From a virus (taxonomy: Duplodnaviria > Caudoviricetes), in IMG/VR virus record IMGVR_UViG_3300043395_001957, positions 1-62,622 of that record: 62,622 bases of DNA; one strand, written 5' to 3'. Below are positions 26,281-62,239 of this stretch, one piece after another (the first letter of the stretch is position 1; each line of letters begins with the position of its first letter). Made by a program: the position numbers and the translations under genes. Under the pieces are notes generated by a model that was not told the origin of the DNA, did not search any database, and saw only the letters and a program-made list of their open reading frames with translations.

Positions 26281-26835
26281 TTAATCTATAAATGGATTGT
26301 TTATTATCTTCTTTAAGTGTGCTCTTATTTTTTTAATGTTTATGAATACAGTCGATTTACTTATTCCTATCTTATCTGCTACTTCTTGCAGAGTATCATC
26401 TGAAGTCCAATAGATTTCGTATATCATAGCAGGTGCGAAATGTTTTGTTTTCTTTAACCTTTCTATTTCACTCATCACTGCTTCATGTGCTTTCATTATA
26501 GCCACATCTCTTTCAACATCATATTCTTCAACAGGTCCATCAGCTGTAATCTCTTCCTGATATTGTAATCGGTTTAACTTCTTTGTTTTATTTATCCATC
26601 TGTGTTTCAAAAACGCCATACAATACATTAGATTATATGAGTTCAAATAGAATAACTTAGTGTTCTTTTTTCTATGTAGATATTCATAAAGTTCGCCTAC
26701 TAAATCTTCAGCTTCCTCTCTATTCTTTGTAATATTGTAACTAACTTGCGATAGCCACGTATGAGATTCTTTGAAAAGGATTTCTAATCTTCTATTACAT
26801 TCCAATGCCACACTGCTAGTCACTTCGTTACTCAT
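26281..26835 (-). CDS. ECF-like sigma-70 factor (late transcription)
   Basis: Region 2-like EAEDLVGELY; region 4 HTH TLQEVADKIGISKSTV. Confidence 0.8.
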   Translation of the reverse strand: MSNEVTSSVALECNRRLEILFKESHTWLSQVSYNITKNREEAEDLVGELYEYLHRKKNTKLFYLNSYNLMYCMAFLKHRWINKTKKLNRLQYQEEITADGPVEEYDVERDVAIMKAHEAVMSEIERLKKTKHFAPAMIYEIYWTSDDTLQEVADKIGISKSTVFINIKKIRAHLKKIINNPFID

Positions 26836-27099
26836 TTATAATAATGATTCTTTTGATGTGATAAATCCTCTTATTCCATCTGCTGCTCTTCTCCAATGTC
26901 CTGCAGCTGAGCCACAACTGCAAGGTTGAGGTTCTCTAGTTCCACTTATCTTTAGATAATTACTCCATACCCAACTCATCTTATCGTGAGGAATGTGAGT
27001 TGTAATATTCATCATTGTATTTCTTAAATCAATGAATTCAGACTCACTATATGGATAAAACCTATCAGTTGGTGGTAATGTAGTTGCTGTTGTTTCCAT
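26836..27099 (-). CDS. Conserved hypothetical protein (QPCSCGS motif)
   Basis: Homolog 59306-59575. Confidence 0.7.
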   Translation of the reverse strand: METTATTLPPTDRFYPYSESEFIDLRNTMMNITTHIPHDKMSWVWSNYLKISGTREPQPCSCGSAAGHWRRAADGIRGFITSKESLL

Positions 27100-27362
27100 T
27101 ACTTATCTACTCTTTTTAATTTAGGTAATTTAATTTCTGCTTGCTTTGGTTGTTGTGGCATATTAATTGGAATAGGATTATCCAATGCTAAGAATTGTTT
27201 GATGTTCTGAAACTGCGGATGTTTGGGTGAGAAACTAAACCCTACTGATGCTAAGATTAACACCAGGTCATTTACTGATGTGATTTTTGTAAAATCAATG
27301 AGATATACACTATTCTCATCGATGTTTTCTGTTCCGTCTAAATTTCCTTTTACTAATTCCAT
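27099..27362 (-). CDS. Conserved hypothetical protein
   Basis: Homolog 59565-59843. Confidence 0.7.
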   Translation of the reverse strand: MELVKGNLDGTENIDENSVYLIDFTKITSVNDLVLILASVGFSFSPKHPQFQNIKQFLALDNPIPINMPQQPKQAEIKLPKLKRVDK

Positions 27363-27379
27363 TTGTTTTGTTTTTATGT

Positions 27380-27574
27380 TTATAACTTAATTGCATTACA
27401 TTCCCCATCATATTGTGGGTTAGTTAATCGATTTAACCACTGCTTCCTTTCGCAGCACCCGCATGAGTTCTTTCCGAATAGTTTAGCAATTGCTAATGCA
27501 ATATGCTCACCCATTCCAAAAGTAACAACATATATAAGCGCTTCTACCCAATCACCTATTTTAATTCTTTTCAT
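27380..27574 (-). CDS. Small CGCxxR-motif protein
   Basis: CGCCERKQWLN; homolog 59853-60065. Confidence 0.65.
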   Translation of the reverse strand: MKRIKIGDWVEALIYVVTFGMGEHIALAIAKLFGKNSCGCCERKQWLNRLTNPQYDGECNAIKL

Positions 27575-27575
27575 A

Positions 27576-27722
27576 TTATCTTTTTTTATCTTTTAATGCC
27601 TGACGAACTAATGCCTGAATAAAACCTTTTATTTGGAATCCGTGTCTTTGGCAATATTCTTTTAAATAACGATGCAGTTCTTCATCTAATTGAACCATCT
27701 TATATTGTTTCTTTTCTTTCAT
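27576..27722 (-). CDS. Ribbon-helix-helix-like regulator (48 aa, below ORF-track cutoff)
   Basis: MKEKKQYKMVQLDEELHRYLKEYCQRHGFQIKGFIQALVRQAL; homolog 60426-60617. Confidence 0.7.
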   Translation of the reverse strand: MKEKKQYKMVQLDEELHRYLKEYCQRHGFQIKGFIQALVRQALKDKKR

Positions 27723-27723
27723 A

Positions 27724-28248
27724 TTATTTTAATCTTTTATTCAAACTCATTCCTAACTGATGGAAGTGGTTAATCATTGTGTATTCAATATTTCTAAGTG
27801 TTTCCTTATCAGTACCAGCCATGTCCAATATAACCCACTTATGTTTATCATAACCATAAACATCAAATGAATGATGTAAGTATGGCATTACTCCATTGTT
27901 TAGTTTATATTCTTTCTTATGTGCATTTCTTCTATAACTGAAAAGAGTTTGGGTGCTCCCCACATATACACGTTGCTCTGGGTTGATTATCAAATACACT
28001 GCTGATTTACTATCATCTGCACATACATTCTCTTTAGCCCATTGATTACAATATGCTGACCACTTCTTATGATTCTTTCTTTGCCAATCAATTTGGTAAG
28101 TAGGCTTTGTTTGTCTAAAATTTTTATTGTTTTCTTTTACACAACTTTTGCAGTTTGTTTGCAATAAATCAGGAGATGCTGCTCTTTTGTGAAATTGTGT
28201 TAGTGGTTGATGCTTACCACACTTTGAACATTGTTTTGTTGTTGCCAT
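27724..28248 (-). CDS. GIY-YIG-like endonuclease with N-terminal Zn finger (unit A only)
   Basis: CSKC..CKSC; AVYLIIN...VYVGST..RR..H. Confidence 0.7.
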   Translation of the reverse strand: MATTKQCSKCGKHQPLTQFHKRAASPDLLQTNCKSCVKENNKNFRQTKPTYQIDWQRKNHKKWSAYCNQWAKENVCADDSKSAVYLIINPEQRVYVGSTQTLFSYRRNAHKKEYKLNNGVMPYLHHSFDVYGYDKHKWVILDMAGTDKETLRNIEYTMINHFHQLGMSLNKRLK

Positions 28249-28301
28249 TTTGTTTACTTTTATATACAGATATATATAAATAAATTTTTGAAAGCGCTGT
28301 T

Positions 28302-28511
28302 TTACTTAGCTTTTTTAAAATTTTGTTTTAATTCTGTAAGTTTTTTGATTAGATAATCAGTATCATCGGCATCTAAATCAATGTATTCTGATGAATAATA
28401 ATTAGAAGGGTCTTCACTATCTGAAATATACAATCTAATTGTGCTTTTTTCTGTAAACCAAACTTCTAATTGTGCAGTTGTGTTGTTGTCTACTAATGTT
28501 TCTTTTATCAT
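28302..28511 (-). CDS. Early hypothetical protein
   Basis: ATG start MIKETLVD just downstream of the TATATTTG promoter element. Confidence 0.55.
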   Translation of the reverse strand: MIKETLVDNNTTAQLEVWFTEKSTIRLYISDSEDPSNYYSSEYIDLDADDTDYLIKKLTELKQNFKKAK

Positions 28512-28531
28512 AGCATTTATTTTTATTACTA

Positions 28532-28562
28532 CAAATATAGTAATAATAATTGATATTTCCAA
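28532..28562 (-). promoter_or_regulatory. Bacteroidota housekeeping-type promoter
   Basis: TATATTTG (-7) at 28532-28539 with TTG ~20 nt upstream. Confidence 0.55.
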
Positions 28563-28639
28563 TAAATTGTATGATTATTTAGTATTGCAGTAATTGCAAT
28601 TATGCTGTCTGCTTATGCTATATGCTTTCTCTGTGTCGT

Positions 28640-28950
28640 CTTACTTCCAAAAGGATACACTACACCTCCTGACACTACGGATTAAAAAAAAAATAATCAA
28701 TAGTGAAACGAAGTGTAGTGTAGTGAATTACTTCCAATGAGGAGTAACACTCTGCTTATTCACACTATTCGCAGTATCCATAAGTTATTTACCTTCATAT
28801 GCACCCTATGGATAACACCTACCTATCTGATGAGTATCTCAACTCTGGCATAGATTTCCATTTATTCCTTATCAATGCTATTGGCGGAGGTGTAGTTCAA
28901 AGTTCCAATAGAAAATCAAAAGAGCTGTTGTATGATTAAGTTTAAAGTTT
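28640..28950 (-). ncRNA. Candidate structured non-coding RNA / origin element (unit A only)
   Basis: No long ORF; 11 bp enclosing stem 28659-28669/28886-28896; internal hairpins; downstream of two promoters. Confidence 0.45.
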
Positions 28951-28956
28951 AGATTA

Positions 28957-28988
28957 CAAATGTAATGATAAAAATTGAAAGTTCCAAA
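28957..28988 (-). promoter_or_regulatory. Bacteroidota promoter TTTG-N20-TACATTTG
   Basis: Consensus -33/-7 elements and spacing. Confidence 0.7.
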
Positions 28989-29037
28989 TAAATTGTAAAA
29001 AAAGTTTAGAGTTCAGAGTTTATATGGACATTTACAT

Positions 29038-29068
29038 TAAATATAAGAAAGATTTTTGAAAAAGCAAA
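29038..29068 (-). promoter_or_regulatory. Bacteroidota-type promoter TTTG-N19-TATATTTA
   Basis: Near-consensus; equivalent at 61525-61556 in unit B. Confidence 0.55.
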
Positions 29069-29083
29069 ATGCTTAAAAAAATA

Positions 29084-29115
29084 TTTGGAAAATGTAAAAC
29101 TTTTTCGTACATTTA
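29084..29115 (+). promoter_or_regulatory. Promoter of small RNA (TTTG-N20-TACATTTA)
   Basis: Near-consensus; equivalent at 61640-61671. Confidence 0.65.
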
Positions 29116-29117
29116 TG

Positions 29118-29238
29118 TTAAGTAAGGAGAAGGACTTAATTAATACTGATATTTACTACACTTTTTGCATCAGTGTCCTTCAACTTTCATATAAATAGCC
29201 CCCCTGCGGTTGGTGCCATCTCCGAGGGGGGCTTTCTT
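29118..29238 (+). ncRNA. Candidate small structured RNA, copy A
   Basis: P1 GAAGGAC/GTCCTTC, 9 nt bulge, P2 ACTGAT/ATCAGT, GC hairpin with GTGCCAT loop and T-tail; covaries with copy B. Confidence 0.65.
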
Positions 29239-29261
29239 ATGCCCAAAATACCCCATTTTCA

Positions 29262-29339
29262 TAACTCATTGATAATCAACACGTTATAAATTAAGCAAAA
29301 AGTTGCTGCGTAACTCATTGATAATCAACACGTTATAAA
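29262..29339. repeat. Two 29 bp direct repeats with internal dyad symmetry
   Basis: TAACTCATTGATAATCAACACGTTATAAA at 29262-29290 and 29311-29339. Confidence 0.85.
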
Positions 29340-29375
29340 AAACTTGCTCAATTTTGAAAAAAACTTGCTAAAATA

Positions 29376-29407
29376 TTTGGCTACTTGCTAACTTTTTCGT
29401 ATATTTG
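29376..29407 (+). promoter_or_regulatory. Bacteroidota promoter TTTG-N20-TATATTTG for the + strand operon
   Basis: Consensus elements; followed by leader hairpin TGTTAGG/CCTAACA. Confidence 0.75.
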
Positions 29408-29500
29408 TTCTGTTAGGTTGATAGAGTATCAGTTCCTAACACATAAACTTTAAACTTTAACAAACCTCCGGAATGGGAGAAAATCCAAACAAAAACAGTT

Positions 29501-29881
29501 ATGAGTACTTTATTACTTAACAAAAACGGAAACGAAGTCGTTAATCAAAAAGACATTGTGTTTCCATTATCAGTTCTTTTTTCTTCAAAAGAAGAAATGG
29601 AAAGTAATCAATCTTTAGTAGATGATATCCTTATTACTACATTTACTCACGTGTTACATTCTAAAATTAATAATCCTTCTTTATTAGAAGATTTAAAAGT
29701 AGGAGATTCGCTTTTCAATATCTTAATTGATAAGTGTGATGAATACTTTTCACTAAATTATTCAGAGAATTGGGCTGATATCACATACCCAATTATTTTA
29801 CAAACATTAATAGATAAAGAAGAATATGAAGAGTGTTCAGCTTTACAAAAATTGTATGACCAATATAAATCTATTAAATAA
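29501..29881 (+). CDS. Early hypothetical protein (C-terminal UVR-like EEYEEC motif)
   Basis: First gene after the promoter; A-rich leader. Confidence 0.6.
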   Translation: MSTLLLNKNGNEVVNQKDIVFPLSVLFSSKEEMESNQSLVDDILITTFTHVLHSKINNPSLLEDLKVGDSLFNILIDKCDEYFSLNYSENWADITYPIILQTLIDKEEYEECSALQKLYDQYKSIK

Positions 29882-29906
29882 TAATTAACTTTAAAATCAA
29901 AACAAA

Positions 29907-30164
29907 ATGGTACAAAACATCCCAACAACAACAGAATCTTTAATGATGTATCTCGCAGATAGTATCATTGATACACGTGGTAACATTGCCAGAATCAACA
30001 ACACCCTCAACCGTTTACAAAACGATTTACATTCAGCTCAAAGTAAAGAAGCCAGAATGGGGTGGTATGAACTTATAGATGATAATAGATTAGAATTAGA
30101 GAACTATGAGTTCCGATTAGATTGGTTACGAAGTCGATTAGATGAATTACACAATTTAGTATAA
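29907..30164 (+). CDS. Early coiled-coil hypothetical protein
   Basis: In operon; AACTTTAAAA leader. Confidence 0.6.
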   Translation: MVQNIPTTTESLMMYLADSIIDTRGNIARINNTLNRLQNDLHSAQSKEARMGWYELIDDNRLELENYEFRLDWLRSRLDELHNLV

Positions 30165-30182
30165 ACCTTAAACTTTAAAACA

Positions 30183-30383
30183 ATGGTACAAAAACACACA
30201 TCACAATTAATTGAGCAATTCAGATTTAATTTAAGAAAACGATTAGATACACTTTGGGAGTTAGAAGATATTCTAGCAGATAAGGAAGAAAATGATGATG
30301 TAATCACATTCAAACATATAGTCAAAGATGAAATACAAAGGATTCTCAATATTTGCAAACTAATAGAAAAAGGTAAGATATAA
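30183..30383 (+). CDS. Early hypothetical protein
   Basis: In operon; ends at a terminator. Confidence 0.55.
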   Translation: MVQKHTSQLIEQFRFNLRKRLDTLWELEDILADKEENDDVITFKHIVKDEIQRILNICKLIEKGKI

Positions 30384-30422
30384 AAAAGAAAGGGTAGCTG
30401 TTATGGCTACCCTTCTTTATTT
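30383..30422. terminator. Bidirectional intrinsic terminator
   Basis: AAGGGTAGC-TGTTATG-GCTACCCTT flanked by A and T tracts between convergent genes. Confidence 0.75.
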
Positions 30423-30442
30423 TCGGTTTGGCTATTCTCTGA

Positions 30443-30571
30443 TTAACGGCCTTGTCCTCTATACTTTTTTGGTCTTTGGTCCTTTGGACCGTAGGATTTT
30501 CTGGCCTTACCAGTTACCTTTTTACCAAACGATATCTTTTGTATGCTACTAGAGCCCTTTCCCTTTGCCAT
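30443..30571 (-). CDS. 42 aa highly basic protein (below ORF-track cutoff)
   Basis: MAKGKGSSSIQKISFGKKVTGKARKSYGPKDQRPKKYRGQGR; homolog 61851-61979. Confidence 0.75.
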   Translation of the reverse strand: MAKGKGSSSIQKISFGKKVTGKARKSYGPKDQRPKKYRGQGR

Positions 30572-30827
30572 CTGTTAGATATTGTACTTGTGTTTGTAAT
30601 TTAGCTACCTCTGCTGTAAGGTGTAATATAGTTGCACGCATTTCATCTTTCTCTTTACTACTCTGCTCTAATAGAGCTTCTAACTTCATTATACGAGTTT
30701 GACAATCGTGTCTGATGAATCTCTCATCATCCTCTCTATTTTGTGCACGCTTCTCATAGTATCTCCATGCAGCTGCACCACCTAAAGTTGTGATTGCAGT
30801 TATTAATACTGAATACAAATTTTCCAT
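30549..30827 (-). CDS. Membrane-anchored coiled-coil protein (holin-like candidate)
   Basis: N-terminal TM segment then heptads; near-identical to 61957-62235. Confidence 0.55.
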   Translation of the reverse strand: MENLYSVLITAITTLGGAAAWRYYEKRAQNREDDERFIRHDCQTRIMKLEALLEQSSKEKDEMRATILHLTAEVAKLQTQVQYLTDGKGKGL

Positions 30828-30883
30828 TTGGTAATTACAATTTTTTTCCTTATCTTTAACAAATAAAAAACCAAAAGTTAGTT

Positions 30884-31372
30884 ATGTTTTACATTTATCA
30901 CATACCAGGAGTTAAAATAGGTTGCTCTACACAACCAAAAACGAGAGTAAAGAGACAAGGATACGATTATTATGAATTATTAGAAACTCATAATGATATC
31001 AATATTGCTTCTCAAAGAGAATTAGAATTACAAAAAGAATATGGATATAAAATAGATTCAACTCCATATAAACAAAGTTATGAGTGGGTAACAAAAGGTA
31101 ACCCATCAATTGAACCAATGTTAGATGGTTATAGAAAATGGGTAAAAGAGAACCCAGAAAAAGTAAAAGAAAATGCTAGAAATGGTGGATTAAAGCAAGG
31201 TCCAATTCAAGGTAAAAAAAATGTTGAAAGTGGTCACATATCAGCATTAGGTAAAAAAAATTCAGAATTTAATAATCGCATTAGAACATGTCCTCATTGT
31301 AATATTGTAACTAGAGGTGTTGGTTATGAAAGATGGCATGGTGATAAATGCCGAAATAAATCTAATCCTTAA
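30884..31372 (+). CDS. Free-standing GIY-YIG-like homing endonuclease (insertion in unit A)
   Basis: FYIYHIPGVKIGCS..R; C-terminal CPHC..RWHGDKC; opposite strand; absent at the syntenic B site. Confidence 0.65.
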   Translation: MFYIYHIPGVKIGCSTQPKTRVKRQGYDYYELLETHNDINIASQRELELQKEYGYKIDSTPYKQSYEWVTKGNPSIEPMLDGYRKWVKENPEKVKENARNGGLKQGPIQGKKNVESGHISALGKKNSEFNNRIRTCPHCNIVTRGVGYERWHGDKCRNKSNP

Positions 31373-31694
31373 AATCAGGATGGTCTTCTTCCGGAATACA
31401 GTTTGGCACAGAAACTCCACCCATATCCTTCATACCCAATTGGCGGTATCCACTTTGGCACGGGTCTTCACCTTCTTCAGCTAATAAATTAATACCTTTG
31501 AATTTAGTATCATAAGCTACTCTAGCCATTACTTTAGCTGATGTATCTTTTATCTTACTCATATTTTCTTTTTCCCAATATGAGTAGCAAATAGCAGCTG
31601 AAACATCTTGTTCTTTACCTGATGCTATTTCTTCTCCTATACAACGGCTGATGAACTCTTGTTCAGTTTCGCCTGCTCTTACATTTACTGGCAT
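31362..31694 (-). CDS. Head-region accessory protein
   Basis: GETEQEFISRC..AAICYSYW and PC..GY.Q.GMK...VPNC modules; homolog 62240-62539. Confidence 0.7.
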   Translation of the reverse strand: MPVNVRAGETEQEFISRCIGEEIASGKEQDVSAAICYSYWEKENMSKIKDTSAKVMARVAYDTKFKGINLLAEEGEDPCQSGYRQLGMKDMGGVSVPNCIPEEDHPDFKD

Positions 31695-31786
31695 TAGTTA
31701 TCTACTTTATATGTTTTATTATTAAAACGAACTTTATATACTGTATTAAAGTCCAATGTTCTCCAATCTCCATCTAATCCAACAAC
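31661..31786. repeat. Internal copy of the terminal repeat (A/B junction)
   Basis: Identical to 1-126, then diverges by synonymous changes. Confidence 0.97.
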
Positions 31787-32026
31787 AGGAACATTATACA
31801 TGTCCATTGCTGCTTTTGTATCAGAACCGCCGGCAATACCATCACCAATCGGTCCATCTATCCAATACATATCATAATATCTTTTTCTACCTGTTTCAGT
31901 TATCCAACCTACTCTAACAGGGTTAGAAGGGGTTGCCTGATTCTTTAGGATATCTTCAAATTCAGAGAAACTAATTTCAGCTGATATAAAGTGTTGTAAT
32001 TTGCTATGTACGGAATTACTTGTCAT
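31694..32026 (-). CDS. Conserved hypothetical protein (homolog of 34-366)
   Basis: Near-identical protein. Confidence 0.7.
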   Translation of the reverse strand: MTSNSVHSKLQHFISAEISFSEFEDILKNQATPSNPVRVGWITETGRKRYYDMYWIDGPIGDGIAGGSDTKAAMDMYNVPVVGLDGDWRTLDFNTVYKVRFNNKTYKVDN

Positions 32027-33191
32027 CTTTTTTCTTTCTTTGTGTTGATGATTGACCTGGATAGCTTGATGATATAGATGGTTGTGCTTCTAATTCCTCT
32101 ATATGATATAAGGGTTTACTATCTGCTGTATGTTCTATACCTGTCATTAATCTACCATCAGGTCCTTTATGTGTAGGTCCTTCGTATAGTTTACCATCTT
32201 TTGTATAATGTGGTACACCTTCTTTTCCTTCTACTAACTCACCTAATTCTCTTAATTTATTTCTGCTCCATGCTAAACCTGCTTTTCCTCCCCAGAGTAA
32301 AAAACTGATTGTCCCGCATGCATTCATATCAGTTTCATCGTAGTATGCTTCTGCTCTACTTAAATAAGAATACATTCTCTTTATTGTTTCCAGGCTAATT
32401 GCTTCGCCTGCTTCTAATTGTGCGCTTCTAACTTTTCCAACCTGCGTAGCGCATTTATTACCATTTTTCTCATTTAACTCTCTACCTCTCTTTGCATTTC
32501 CACGAACTCCTGAGCCATAGTCTTGGAATGATTCCATCTCTATTCTCTGCTTCGCTTTATACCTCTTATCCTTCTTTATAAGCGCTTTAATTTGTCCGAG
32601 TAATACTTCTGCTTCAATTTCAGTTAACTCCTCTATATCCTTCTCTAAAGCAAGTTTAACATCACTCTTCTGGTGCTCAAAAAGTCCCTCTATCGAGAAA
32701 CCGTTAAATTCGCCAGATTTTACTCTCTCCCATACTTTAGGATTATCTTCTGCAGAATATACTGCAAACCAACTTCCTTTAGGTAAAGTAAAACCATATA
32801 GATTTGATTTATCTTTTGTAGGATGTTCTACTATCCAGCTCTCCACCATATGAACGCCTGATGTTTTATTACCATGCTCTAAAGTTACTTCAGAAAGTAA
32901 TTTATTCTTCATAAACTTTCTTGCAACCTTTTCAATTGTTTGTGGAGTAAAGAAAACATGGTATGGAGAACCATCCTCTTTTAATCTTAATATCTTTTTA
33001 TTAGGAATAAGCATTGGGCCTGCAATTAACATTTTTTCTTCATTAACTGCTGCAAATGTATATTCCTGATTGAAGTAAACGAAATCACGCTCAATAGCGC
33101 CTGCGGCTACTAATGAGTTTGCAAACACACCATCCTCTTCGTCAACTAAAACAAGCTCAAAAAGCTCTTCTATATTTTCGTTCTTTATCAT
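32016..33191 (-). CDS. XkdF-like putative prohead protease with extra His-rich module
   Basis: Homolog of 768-1805; inserted GVPHYTKDGKLYEGPTHK..LMTG.EH..S..LYH. Confidence 0.8.
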   Translation of the reverse strand: MIKNENIEELFELVLVDEEDGVFANSLVAAGAIERDFVYFNQEYTFAAVNEEKMLIAGPMLIPNKKILRLKEDGSPYHVFFTPQTIEKVARKFMKNKLLSEVTLEHGNKTSGVHMVESWIVEHPTKDKSNLYGFTLPKGSWFAVYSAEDNPKVWERVKSGEFNGFSIEGLFEHQKSDVKLALEKDIEELTEIEAEVLLGQIKALIKKDKRYKAKQRIEMESFQDYGSGVRGNAKRGRELNEKNGNKCATQVGKVRSAQLEAGEAISLETIKRMYSYLSRAEAYYDETDMNACGTISFLLWGGKAGLAWSRNKLRELGELVEGKEGVPHYTKDGKLYEGPTHKGPDGRLMTGIEHTADSKPLYHIEELEAQPSISSSYPGQSSTQRKKKDDK

Positions 33192-58293: not shown

Positions 58294-58762
58294 CTTCTTC
58301 CATTCCGTATCCTAGCTTTTCCCAATCTTCCCATGTCATATTGCGAGTATCAGGATAATCTTTATTTATTTTTCCTTGTATTTTATTTCCTTTATCTTTT
58401 TCTTTATGAGAATTAATCCAAGCCATTAACTCTTCGTTGTTTTCAGTCTCTTCTAAATTCTTTTTTATTTGTTCTATCCATTTATCTCTATCCTTTATCT
58501 TACTCATTATACTTCTTGTCTTATAAAACTTTTGCTGATAATATTCCCATTCTCCTAATGGATATGGCAATCTTCCCATTAGTCCTGCTCTTCTACCTTC
58601 TTTCTCCGCTTGTATTCTAGCATATTCTCTTTGTCTAGCTCTTTGACAATCTAAACATACGCTAGTTTTATGTCCTACCTTTTGTGGTATTTCTTTTATC
58701 TCTCCGCAATGTAAACATTCCAATAGTAATGTTGGATATTTCTTTGTAACCTTTTTAGTCAT
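58286..58762 (-). CDS. Zn-finger hypothetical protein
   Basis: Homolog of 25855-26271. Confidence 0.65.
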   Translation of the reverse strand: MTKKVTKKYPTLLLECLHCGEIKEIPQKVGHKTSVCLDCQRARQREYARIQAEKEGRRAGLMGRLPYPLGEWEYYQQKFYKTRSIMSKIKDRDKWIEQIKKNLEETENNEELMAWINSHKEKDKGNKIQGKINKDYPDTRNMTWEDWEKLGYGMEEDD

Positions 58763-59309
58763 TTATAAATGGGTTCTTAATAATTTGTTTTAGGTGTTGC
58801 CTAACTCTTTTTAGGTGTGTGAATACAGTGCTTTTAGATATACCAATTTTATCTGCTACTTCTTGTAGGGTATCATCGCCAGTCCAATATATCTCATATA
58901 TCATTGCGGAACTAAATCCTTTTGTTTTCTTTAATCGGTTTATCTCATCCATTACTGCTTTATGCGCTTCCATTATCTGAATATCTGCATCTACATTGTA
59001 TTCTATATCACAATCTTCCGATTGAACCATACCAATGTATTGTATCTTCTTTGCTCTTTTAGTACGATTTATCCATCTTGATTTAATGAACGAATGGCAG
59101 TACATAAGATTATAGGAATTATCGTAGTATAGTTTTGGACTACATTTTTCTGCTAAATACAGGTATAGGTCTTGAACGAGCTCCTCACTTTCTAATCTGC
59201 TTTTGCAAATATTGTATGAGACTTGCAAAAGCCACGTGTTAGATTGCCTGTATAAGTTATCTAATCTCTCATTACATTCAAATCTAACACTAGCCGTTAC
59301 TTCACTCAT
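58755..59309 (-). CDS. ECF-like sigma-70 factor
   Basis: SEELVQDLYL; TLQEVADKIGISKSTV. Confidence 0.8.
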   Translation of the reverse strand: MSEVTASVRFECNERLDNLYRQSNTWLLQVSYNICKSRLESEELVQDLYLYLAEKCSPKLYYDNSYNLMYCHSFIKSRWINRTKRAKKIQYIGMVQSEDCDIEYNVDADIQIMEAHKAVMDEINRLKKTKGFSSAMIYEIYWTGDDTLQEVADKIGISKSTVFTHLKRVRQHLKQIIKNPFIND

Positions 59310-61285: not shown

Positions 61286-61486
61286 TTACTTTTGTTTTGA
61301 TTGTTTTTCCATTACATCTGCAATTCTTCCGATGTTCATTGCTAATGTCATTACTGCTTCTGTCATTGATACCCCAATCATTCCACATTGTTTGTTAGGT
61401 CCGTGTAGGTCTGCGTAATCTAATACATTTACTAGATTGTCAATTGCTTCAGCGATTTCGTTTGGTGTTTGGTTTTTTGTAGCCAT
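61286..61486 (-). CDS. Early hypothetical protein (unit B only)
   Basis: First gene after the promoter at 61525-61556. Confidence 0.6.
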   Translation of the reverse strand: MATKNQTPNEIAEAIDNLVNVLDYADLHGPNKQCGMIGVSMTEAVMTLAMNIGRIADVMEKQSKQK

Positions 61487-61639: not shown

Positions 61640-61671
61640 TTTGGAAATACGGAAATTATTTCGTAAGTTTG
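61640..61671 (+). promoter_or_regulatory. Promoter of small RNA (TTTG-N20-TAAGTTTG)
   Basis: Consensus Bacteroidota -33/-7. Confidence 0.75.
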
Positions 61672-61673
61672 TT

Positions 61674-61788
61674 AAATGAGTAGGAGCTTAAAGAATACCG
61701 ATACATTTTTTTAATCTATTGTCGGTGCTCCTCATATATCTCTATATAACCGCCCTCCTTCGTGCCATTTGGGGGGCGGTATTTTTTT
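61674..61788 (+). ncRNA. Candidate small structured RNA, copy B
   Basis: P1 AGGAGC/GCTCCT, 9 nt bulge, P2 ACCGAT/GTCGGT, terminator hairpin with GTGCCAT loop and T7. Confidence 0.65.
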
Positions 61789-61850
61789 GCTAAAAAAAAA
61801 GGATAGCTGTTATGGCTACCCTTCTTTATTTCGGTTTGGTTATTCTCTGA

Positions 61851-61979
61851 TTAACGGCCTTGGCCTCTATATTTTTTCGGTTTTTGGTCCTTTGGACCGT
61901 AGGCTTTTCTGGCCTTACCAGTTACCTTTTTACCAAACGATATCTTTTGTATGCTGCTAGAGCCCTTTACCTTTGGCAT
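61851..61979 (-). CDS. 42 aa highly basic protein
   Basis: MPKVKGSSSIQKISFGKKVTGKARKAYGPKDQKPKKYRGQGR. Confidence 0.75.
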   Translation of the reverse strand: MPKVKGSSSIQKISFGKKVTGKARKAYGPKDQKPKKYRGQGR

Positions 61980-62235
61980 CAGTTAAATATTGAACTTGTG
62001 TTTGTAGTTTAGCTACTTCAGCAGTTAAGTGAAGTATAGTTGCACGCATTTCATCTTTCTCTTTACTACTCTGCTCTAATAGAGCTTCTAACTTCATTAT
62101 ACGAGTCTGGCAATCGTGTCTGATAAATCTCTCATCATCCTCTCTATGTTGTGCACGCTTCTCATAGAATCTCCATGCAGCAGCACCACCTAAAGTTGTT
62201 ATTGCCGTTATTAATACTGAATAAAAGTTTTCCAT
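61957..62235 (-). CDS. Membrane-anchored coiled-coil protein (holin-like candidate)
   Basis: Homolog of 30549-30827. Confidence 0.55.
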   Translation of the reverse strand: MENFYSVLITAITTLGGAAAWRFYEKRAQHREDDERFIRHDCQTRIMKLEALLEQSSKEKDEMRATILHLTAEVAKLQTQVQYLTDAKGKGL

Positions 62236-62239
62236 TATC

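Follow-up and report, generated by a model that had tools for sequence, protein, structure and literature searches.

A Phage Window with Two Small RNA Genes

Two small structured RNA genes, copy A (~29121-29240) and copy B (~61677-61788), lie on the plus strand of a 62,622-nt IMG/VR phage record, referred to below as the window. The record is closed by a terminal repeat of 117 bp and consists of two related genomes of ~31 kb each arranged head to tail, unit A (~1-31660) and unit B (~31661-62505), which share roughly 70-95% identity across their alignable parts and carry nearly all of their genes on the minus strand. The unit junctions fall in stretches that are 92-95% identical (1-369 with 31661-32029, and 30383-30828 with 61792-62236), and the record looks more like two co-assembled strains than a single 62-kb genome. 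The features at the two loci are as follows.

29084-29115, plus strand: promoter of copy A, with TTTG at 29084-87, a 20-nt spacer and TACATTTA at 29108-15; one mismatch to the TTTG/TAnnTTTG consensus
29121-29181, plus strand: 5′ domain of copy A, from sequence reading and fold
29129-35 and 29175-81, plus strand: P1 of copy A, GAAGGAC / GTCCTTC
29136-44, plus strand: bulge of copy A, 9 nt, TTAATTAAT
29145-50 and 29169-74, plus strand: P2 of copy A, ACTGAT / ATCAGT
29182-29196, plus strand: linker of copy A, A/U-rich and single-stranded, containing TCATATA and ending in …TCATATAAAT
29197-29240, plus strand: P3 hairpin and T-rich tail (TTCTTAT) of copy A, a terminator-like site
29197-205 and 29225-33, plus strand: P3 stem of copy A, AGCCCCCCT / AGGGGGGCT, with loop GTGCCAT at 29213-19
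61640-61671, plus strand: promoter of copy B, with TTTG at 61640-43, a 20-nt spacer and TAAGTTTG at 61664-71; a strict match to TTTG-N18-21-TAnnTTTG
61677-61732, plus strand: 5′ domain of copy B, from sequence reading, fold and alignment
61682-87 and 61727-32, plus strand: P1 of copy B, AGGAGC / GCTCCT
61688-96, plus strand: bulge of copy B, TTAAAGAAT
61697-702 and 61721-26, plus strand: P2 of copy B, ACCGAT / GTCGGT, one G.U pair
61733-61748, plus strand: linker of copy B, CATATATCTCTATATA
61749-61788, plus strand: P3 hairpin and tail of copy B, with loop GTGCCAT at 61762-68 and a T7 tail at 61782-88
61749-58 and 61771-80, plus strand: P3 stem of copy B, ACCGCCCTCC / GGGGGGCGGT, one G.U pair
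27724-28248, minus strand: F6 endonuclease gene, second early gene of unit A, matching PHROG endonuclease families with E of 2e-10 to 7e-4
61286-61486, minus strand: first early gene of unit B, 66 aa, no family
26281-26835 (unit A) and 58755-59309 (unit B), minus strand: sigma-like early protein, matching PHROG 1740 with E of 2e-5 and Pfam Sigma70_r4 below the cut-off

Scans of the window against PHROG and Pfam identified a large terminase, a portal, a tail protein, a methyltransferase and a glycosyltransferase, together with the weakly sigma-factor-like early protein and Arc-like small proteins. Neither a polymerase nor a primase was found among roughly 30 scanned ORFs of some 90 in the window, and no integrase was seen among the ORFs scanned. 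The closest cultured relatives are the Nonlabens (Flavobacteriaceae) phages P12024L and P12024S, with a portal 35% identical over 80% of its length, and this similarity and the promoter type point to the Bacteroidota as hosts, at the level of the group and not of a particular host. An INPHARED DNA search with 27000-31500 gave no match, nor did a tblastn search of the sigma-like early protein against phages. This protein is kept in all related phages, with a weak resemblance to sigma factors, and in the distant Nonlabens phage a protein with sigma-70 region 2 precedes the terminase.

Fold and Transcription Signals of the Two Copies

Minimum-free-energy folds of both copies gave all three helices, with −40.4 kcal/mol for copy A (z −3.3) and −35.2 kcal/mol for copy B (z −3.1); of the 200 shuffles made for each copy, one was as stable. 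The G.U pairs of copy B become A.C mismatches if read on the opposite strand, and the structure is therefore strand-specific. An earlier sequence-only reading had described a novel small RNA at 29084-29238 with a second copy in unit B, and the stems, bulge, heptamer loop and T-tail that it quoted could be read in both copies. As it also claimed, the copies lie in non-homologous regions (blastn at E ≤ 1e-5 finds no flank homology between the units) and diverge from the early operon, the early genes being on the minus strand in both units. Some of its details need adjustment. The proposed span includes the promoter at 29084-29115, which puts the probable start of the RNA itself near 29121; the copies have a T-rich P2 loop, but this is not conserved across the family; and TCATATA does occur in the copy A linker, although the conserved element is TATA(W)A instead. 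The statement that no ORF lies between promoter and terminator holds in a weaker form, since ORFs of 30-38 aa overlap copy A but none of them is conserved, and loop and stem lengths among homologues differ by non-multiples of three.

Promoters of Bacteroidota have the −33/−7 consensus TTTG / TAnnTTTG, and we take the TTTG-N20-TAnnTTT(G/A) before each copy to be a promoter of this type. An upstream host-type promoter, judged by this consensus, and a 3′ GC-rich hairpin followed by a U-run are both present, as looked for in an independent small RNA (sRNA), and the sequence supports reading the element as a discrete promoter-to-terminator unit on the plus strand. At 29358-29406, a 73% identical copy of the copy A promoter heads the plus-strand ORFs of unit A. 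Contigs from four river metatranscriptome runs place the phage sequence in RNA libraries; they cover 28738-28966 and parts of 29442-30339 and not 29116-29243, contigs being unable to show small RNAs, transcript ends or strand.

Several other elements surround the RNA genes. On the minus strand, the early side of unit A opens with a perfect TTTG-N20-TACATTTG promoter (28987-28955). The next ~390 nt contain no ORF of at least 30 aa, and only then come another promoter and the first of the early genes. Within 28563-28987 (minus strand), positions 28738-28966 are covered by contigs from all four metatranscriptome runs, and an imperfect 29-nt inverted repeat lies at 28656-28722. Either a long leader or another non-coding RNA may lie here, and the region has no counterpart in unit B. 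Copy A is closely followed by a perfect direct repeat of 29 nt, TAACTCATTGATAATCAACACGTTATAAA, at 29262-29290 and 29311-29339; it contains the palindrome TTGATAATCAA and may be an operator or iteron. CTCATTGATAATCAA-like sequences follow the RNA in L275 and L304 (L-numbers denote the phage and genome loci compared in this study). The end of the late operon is marked by a conserved two-way terminator hairpin, AAGGGTAGCTGTTATGGCTACCCTT, at 30390-30414 and 61799-61825, which in unit B directly abuts the RNA's own terminator; the genes downstream of copy B are all convergent.

The RNA Family Occurs across a Lineage of Freshwater Phages

Searches with Rfam 15 at the gathering score gave no match in the whole window, in agreement with the earlier suggestion that the RNA belongs to no known family; the thresholds not reached include those of C4 antisense RNA, HEARO, the freshwater and Flavobacteria motifs and small ribozymes. 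When the limit was relaxed to E ≤ 10 for the 3162 nt around copy A, seven sub-threshold chance matches appeared, of which only TCV_Pr overlaps copy A, on the P3 hairpin, with 18.2 bits against a gathering score of 40. Full-text searches of the literature, covering main texts, found neither a description of this RNA nor one of an sRNA matching endonuclease start codons.

About 50 distinct homologues were found in IMG/VR phage contigs. Pattern scans of this collection returned true relatives mixed with chance matches: 15 of 25 stretches were true in one scan, 18 of 24 new stretches scored with model R1 in a further one, and the loose pattern CTTAANNAATACYGATA, with 2 true relatives among at least 115 stretches listed, was rejected for searching. 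Since the first relatives had been chosen by their RNA motifs, a second sample was drawn via the sigma-like early protein, keeping the best 80 of 288 relatives, 76 of which represent new loci. The RNA is present in 45 of these 76 (42 by model R1 and 3 more by model R2), and in 30 of the 32 that have at least 3 kb upstream of the early protein gene; the two without it, L261 and L320, show at most a plain terminator where the RNA is expected. Relative to the early operon, the RNA is divergent in 18 of the 45 loci, as in the window, and lies just upstream on the same strand in the other 27. The RNA family is thus found across a whole lineage of freshwater phages. The co-oriented loci have a second early-type promoter (TTTGG … CGTATATTA) between the RNA terminator and the nuclease gene discussed below; a promoter in this interval was detected at 19 of 24 loci with a relaxed pattern and at 3 of 24 with a strict one. 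With such a promoter in place, the RNA would act in trans in both arrangements.

Searches further afield were negative. None of the 28 loci fetched via a 92-aa holin-like neighbor carries the RNA; 26 of them share the holin-like gene only, L002 shares two late genes as well and one has no tblastn match, so these loci are uninformative as controls. In Nonlabens phage P12024L no RNA was found (best match 17.5 bits, E 0.24, with filters off). A pattern scan of genome contigs gave 59 stretches, none of them convincing (the best at 21.8 bits, E 0.088), and the early-protein scan of genome contigs returned one short contig, binned as Cyanobium, with no RNA match. Among 151 genomes of one Flavobacteriaceae-type family there was no convincing RNA; the one match of 34 bits is a gene-end terminator with loop ATTGCCAT and was rejected as lacking P1 and P2. 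This terminator, in the Flavobacteriaceae-type genome G125 (L329:1520-1575), resembles the linker and P3 of copy A (TTTCATAT…ATAGCCACCCCGATTGCCATCGGGGTGGCTTTTTTTT), which is probably chance or a shared terminator style.

Three Helices Covary among the Homologues

The stems had been described as covarying between copies A and B, and they do so across 49 aligned homologues as well. In this alignment, which was fitted to the model and hence favors the structure, 92.2% of cells pair, compared with 57.5% in shuffles and 31-47% with slid partners. Twenty of the 21 pairs change on both sides, with 344 such cells against 110 in shuffles, and the covariation score of 0.756 (0.197 in shuffles) was reached by none of 500 shuffles. 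P1 and P2 are 97.6% and 97.9% paired, respectively, with 12 of their 13 pairs changed on both sides, and the eight G.U pairs at the first P2 position, for example, fit the RNA strand only. P3 aligns poorly because its length varies; checked directly, all 50 RNAs enclose the loop heptamer in a stem of at least 5 bp, and 37 different stem sequences occur among them (L304 was left out as its match is short). The three helices covary, with the compensatory changes of a structured RNA. Together, the homologues and the covariation counts show that copies A and B are more than chance, and confirm them as real structured RNA genes of ~115 bases that had not been cataloged before.

Conservation is strongest at the bulge UUAAnnAAU (9-11 nt) and the pairs that close it, which on the P2 side are A-U (or G.U) and C-G. 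A TATA-type linker motif is present in most homologues. TGTTA stands just 5′ of the RNA body in 40 of 51 homologues, 9 of which 51 show the strict promoter pattern, and a T-run follows P3 in nearly all. L239 and L230 have a separate terminator downstream of P3, so that termination cannot be all that P3 is kept for and its loop must matter too. The usual P3 loop is UUnR-UGCCAU-YU, with the variants UGUCAU, AGUCAU, UUGCCAU, GGCCAU and GCCAG or GUCAG; with its UUnR start it resembles the U-turn (YUNR) loops of fast-pairing antisense RNAs. In L269:1885-2014, GUGCCAU stands in the P2 loop, and the P3 loop UCGUCAU matches two tandem ACAAUGAC sites at an endonuclease start, so that one RNA may carry two different seeds.

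The P3 Loop Is Complementary to Endonuclease Start Codons

The reverse complement of the loop heptamer GUGCCAU, AUGGCAC, contains a start codon. An exact complement lies within 300 nt of the RNA for 19 of 50 RNAs (16 of 39 clusters), where ~2 would be expected (Poisson P ~1e-11), and the remaining 31 have no exact site in this range. Every site belongs to the sense strand of an early gene; the distance is 144-185 nt, upstream, for divergent RNAs and 54-112 nt, downstream, for co-oriented ones. We then sorted ORFs of at least 40 aa by blast family and inspected a start window from −14 to +10. The heptamer complement occurs there in 11 of 23 members of family F9 (HNH/NUMOD4), 7 of 20 of F6 (EndoVII/GIY-like) and 3 of 7 of F11 (DUF6291), compared with 4 of 1457 other ORFs, a set that includes many spurious frames; its first six letters, ATGGCA, a common gene start, occur at 47 of the 1457. 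F9 proteins combine NUMOD4 and HNH_3, the make-up of free-standing homing endonucleases, with 114-133 aa and NUMOD4 in some members only. F6 proteins match the PHROG endonuclease VII, HNH and GIY-YIG homing-endonuclease families, more weakly than F9 proteins match theirs, and the candidate targets of both kinds range from 114 to 175 aa.

The match follows the nuclease gene and the loop. It stays with the gene where this lies 1.1-1.8 kb away (L113, −1505; L287, −1801; L272, −1090). GUCAU loops pair with AUGAC starts in L262, L269, L279, L277, L292 and L297, and L298 also combines a GUCAU loop with an HNH-family ORF starting ATGAC. The UUGCCAU loop of L272 pairs with AUGGCAA, and L239 and L324 keep the pairing of loop and target via G.U. 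L255 and L303 have CAG loops, for which the matching sequences, UUGGCAC and UUGACAC, immediately precede the AUG. The flanks of the heptamer match locus by locus as well (CUU with AAG, UUU with AAA), for example with 11 contiguous pairs in L301. When loops were permuted among loci, the 465 pairs observed compared with 444 ± 9.6, and 22 of 2000 permutations were as high (P ~0.01), a modest result given that automatic start-codon choice is imperfect and related phages are non-independent. The comparison of these sequences shows that, in the family, loop-start complementarity is above chance and that loop and start covary.

The RNA-less relatives L261 and L320 still hold HNH genes starting ATGGCAA. 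At L160:2120 and L150:8760, AUGGCAC opens a 4-codon mini-ORF (AUGGCACAUCUCUAA and AUGGCACACAUAUGA) ahead of or overlapping the real start, cases which suggest that the conserved feature is a leader site and not the first two codons of the protein.

The copies in the window pair less well. The F6 gene of unit A belongs to the same blast family as the loop-matching genes of other phages, and its start is the candidate target of copy A.

28238-28248, minus strand: candidate target of copy A at the F6 start, AUGGCAaCAAC; 10 of 11 positions pair, RNAduplex −13.5 kcal/mol

Copy A has no exact heptamer site at any early gene. In unit B, the best matches are 6-nt AUGGC(A) at the two leading early genes (−8.8 and −10.6 kcal/mol), the first gene starting AAUGGC with 6 pairs to the copy B loop at −8.8 kcal/mol; a common Met-Ala start would already provide as much. 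Unit B has no F6 or F9 endonuclease gene, and copy B shows that the RNA is kept without its proposed target. Across the window, the loop complement is not enriched (5 sites against 6.1 expected, the two RNA genes included), and hits from an RNAduplex scan with the loop and stem segments were rejected as GC-stem artifacts. As both copies are weak on pairing, it is the family that carries the case for a target and not these two copies. Nor does the window show any enrichment of the bulge complement, and in the flanks of the 49 loci this occurs at 4 loci against 1.55 expected, on inconsistent strands. A conserved bulge with no enriched complement nearby indicates that a part of the function is missing from the target model.

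Discussion

We propose that the RNA is a trans-acting antisense sRNA repressing translation of homing-type endonucleases, a reading to which we give somewhat better than even chances. From the structure, conservation, position and covarying complementarity described above, we infer that the RNA is made, that it pairs in the cell and that it represses. Host RNA polymerase would transcribe an RNA of ~105-120 nt from its own early-type promoter up to its own intrinsic terminator. The transcript would consist of two modules, i.e., a 5′ hairpin (P1-P2) presenting the nearly invariant 9-nt bulge UUAAnnAAU, and the GC-rich 3′ hairpin P3, with a loop presenting (UUnR)UGYCAU. This loop is predicted to pair with the translation-initiation region of free-standing homing-type endonuclease genes that head the early operon, either HNH/NUMOD4 or EndoVII-like plus GIY-YIG-like, the paired stretch usually comprising the AUG, the next 4 nt and 1-4 nt upstream. 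Pairing would block ribosome access, and nuclease production would presumably be lowered or timed. It is tempting to go one step further and regard the terminator loop as a shared "bridle" to which any homing endonuclease has to conform once it settles at the head of the early operon, with the invariant bulged hairpin acting on a separate partner (a host factor or chaperone). A shared loop of this kind would explain why unrelated nuclease families carry the same start sequence, and a separate partner of the bulge why the RNA persists in genomes with no F6 or F9 gene, like that of copy B. We put this extension forward tentatively, as a possible view that we would sooner doubt than adopt.

The most serious alternative is an sRNA or protein-binding RNA with its main job elsewhere, e.g., one whose bulge binds or sequesters a host factor or mRNA, the match to endonuclease starts being secondary or incidental. 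It would account for the bulge and its closing pairs being the most conserved part of the RNA with no complement nearby, for the retention of the RNA by copy B and a few other phages with no F6 or F9 gene, and for the 31 of 50 RNAs that have no exact site nearby. However, the enrichment of the heptamer match in endonuclease ORFs (18 of 43, with 4 of 1457 for the others), along with the covariation of loop and start, can hardly be incidental, and neither the 151 Flavobacteriaceae-type genomes nor the pattern scan of genome contigs contained a convincing host-encoded homologue, and we regard this alternative as unlikely. That ATGGCAC/GTGCCAT might instead be a protein site in DNA, either an operator of an early regulator or a recognition or homing site of the endonuclease, with the hairpins incidental, is suggested by the Arc-like repressor gene in the operon and by the appearance of the RNA gene as a hot spot with variable nuclease genes alongside; free-standing homing endonucleases are known for inserting beside conserved sequences. 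Such a site would not require three helices that covary with G.U pairs, which point to RNA and to one strand, nor would it place the same start motif in two unrelated nuclease families. Furthermore, L239, L324, L255 and L303 keep the RNA pairing and not the DNA identity, and complementarity reaches into the locus-specific flanks of the loop (CUU with AAG, UUU with AAA), making a DNA-level motif quite improbable.

Two readings place the function of the RNA in its own vicinity. Transcription through a structured region could activate or prime replication, and a role as an origin transcript or primer RNA would fit the perfect 29-nt direct repeat just downstream of copy A, the lack of a polymerase or primase among the ORFs scanned, and an early protein of 191 aa in unit B that is replisome-organizer-like by sequence reading only, with no family match. 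But unit B and most homologues have no such repeats beside the RNA, which moreover ends at a terminator, and the complementarity between loop and start would be left unexplained; we consider an origin function highly improbable. More remote still is a cis-acting leader, attenuator or riboswitch of the downstream genes. In 27 of 45 loci the RNA precedes the early operon on the same strand, and it ends in a terminator, as such an element might, but the other 18 loci are divergent and copy B is followed by convergent genes only, so that for the divergent copies this reading already fails, and a separate promoter usually stands between the terminator and the next gene. Further candidates were dropped on the general features of the classes, with the Rfam search as the only comparison: a pRNA-like element (no complementary loop pairs), a 6S-like RNA (no central bubble), a tRNA-like structure (no cloverleaf), a retron (no reverse transcriptase) and a CRISPR-repeat mimic (no repeat similarity).

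The antisense mechanism that we favor has parallels in several known systems. P1 c4, P4 CI, P22 sar and IstR-1 are antisense RNAs that pair from loop to ribosome site, or divergent antitoxin RNAs; judged by the Rfam search, the present RNA belongs to none of these. The c4 RNA of P1/P7 and the CI RNA of P4, which form the C4 antisense RNA family of Rfam, are processed from an operon transcript and serve prophage immunity. Like the present RNA, they are small structured phage RNAs beside (in P1, upstream of) the operon that they control, with loops that pair with short sites over the ribosome-binding region. In contrast, the present RNA has no sequence or structure match to them in Rfam, has its own promoter and terminator, can be divergent, matches endonuclease starts and occurs in phages with no integrase among the ORFs scanned.

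The T4-type homing endonuclease genes (I-TevI, mobE) also keep a mobile nuclease gene quiet at its translation-initiation region, by local hairpins that hide the ribosome site; there the occluder is a cis hairpin in the mRNA itself, whereas here it would be a separate conserved sRNA. The HEARO or omega RNA of IscB is likewise a structured RNA associated with an HNH endonuclease, in this case a large RuvC and HNH protein with an RNA of roughly 200-300 nt directly upstream. The present RNA resembles it in standing beside an HNH-domain gene, but at ~115 nt has about a third of its size, may point away from the gene or lie 1-2 kb from it, and accompanies non-HNH nucleases just as well, and a guide scaffold would not need a loop matching mRNA starts. 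With no Rfam match and HNH proteins of only 114-133 aa, we do not assign it to the IscB/HEARO type.

A further comparison is with CfrI, reportedly a long cis-antisense transcript overlapping the endonuclease gene F-CphI. A review places CfrI, an antisense RNA of cyanophage S-PM2, between psbA and F-CphI (PMC12197685). Both are non-coding RNAs of lytic phages linked to a homing endonuclease gene, and the present RNA differs in that it does not overlap its candidate target and would pair through a hairpin loop of 7-11 nt. The candidate targets, HNH/NUMOD4 and EndoVII/GIY-like proteins, set it apart from type I toxin-antitoxin systems. IstR-1/tisB is a pair of that type with a divergent, non-overlapping antisense RNA. 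It shares with the present case an sRNA gene adjacent and divergent to the gene of a harmful product, short complementarity in the 5′ region and presumed translational repression. The differences are that nucleases of 114-175 aa, and not small membrane peptides, would be targeted, that pairing would occur at the start codon itself and that the setting is a phage early operon.

We rate the RNA family as new and the regulation as of a known kind. To our knowledge, few conserved structured sRNA families have been described in phages, and none for phages of Bacteroidota; as far as we know, Bacteroidota hosts lack Hfq and ProQ. The invariant bulge module offers a handle for finding an RNA-binding partner in this group. 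Phages linked to the RNA are abundant in river and lake viromes, as judged by the 288 relatives of the early protein. If the target model is true, they would have a new viral control of mobile nuclease genes via a shared antisense RNA, and not via hairpins in each mRNA, and if the bridle reading is also true, no earlier case would be known of a trans-acting sRNA that keeps selfish nuclease genes within a virus under control.
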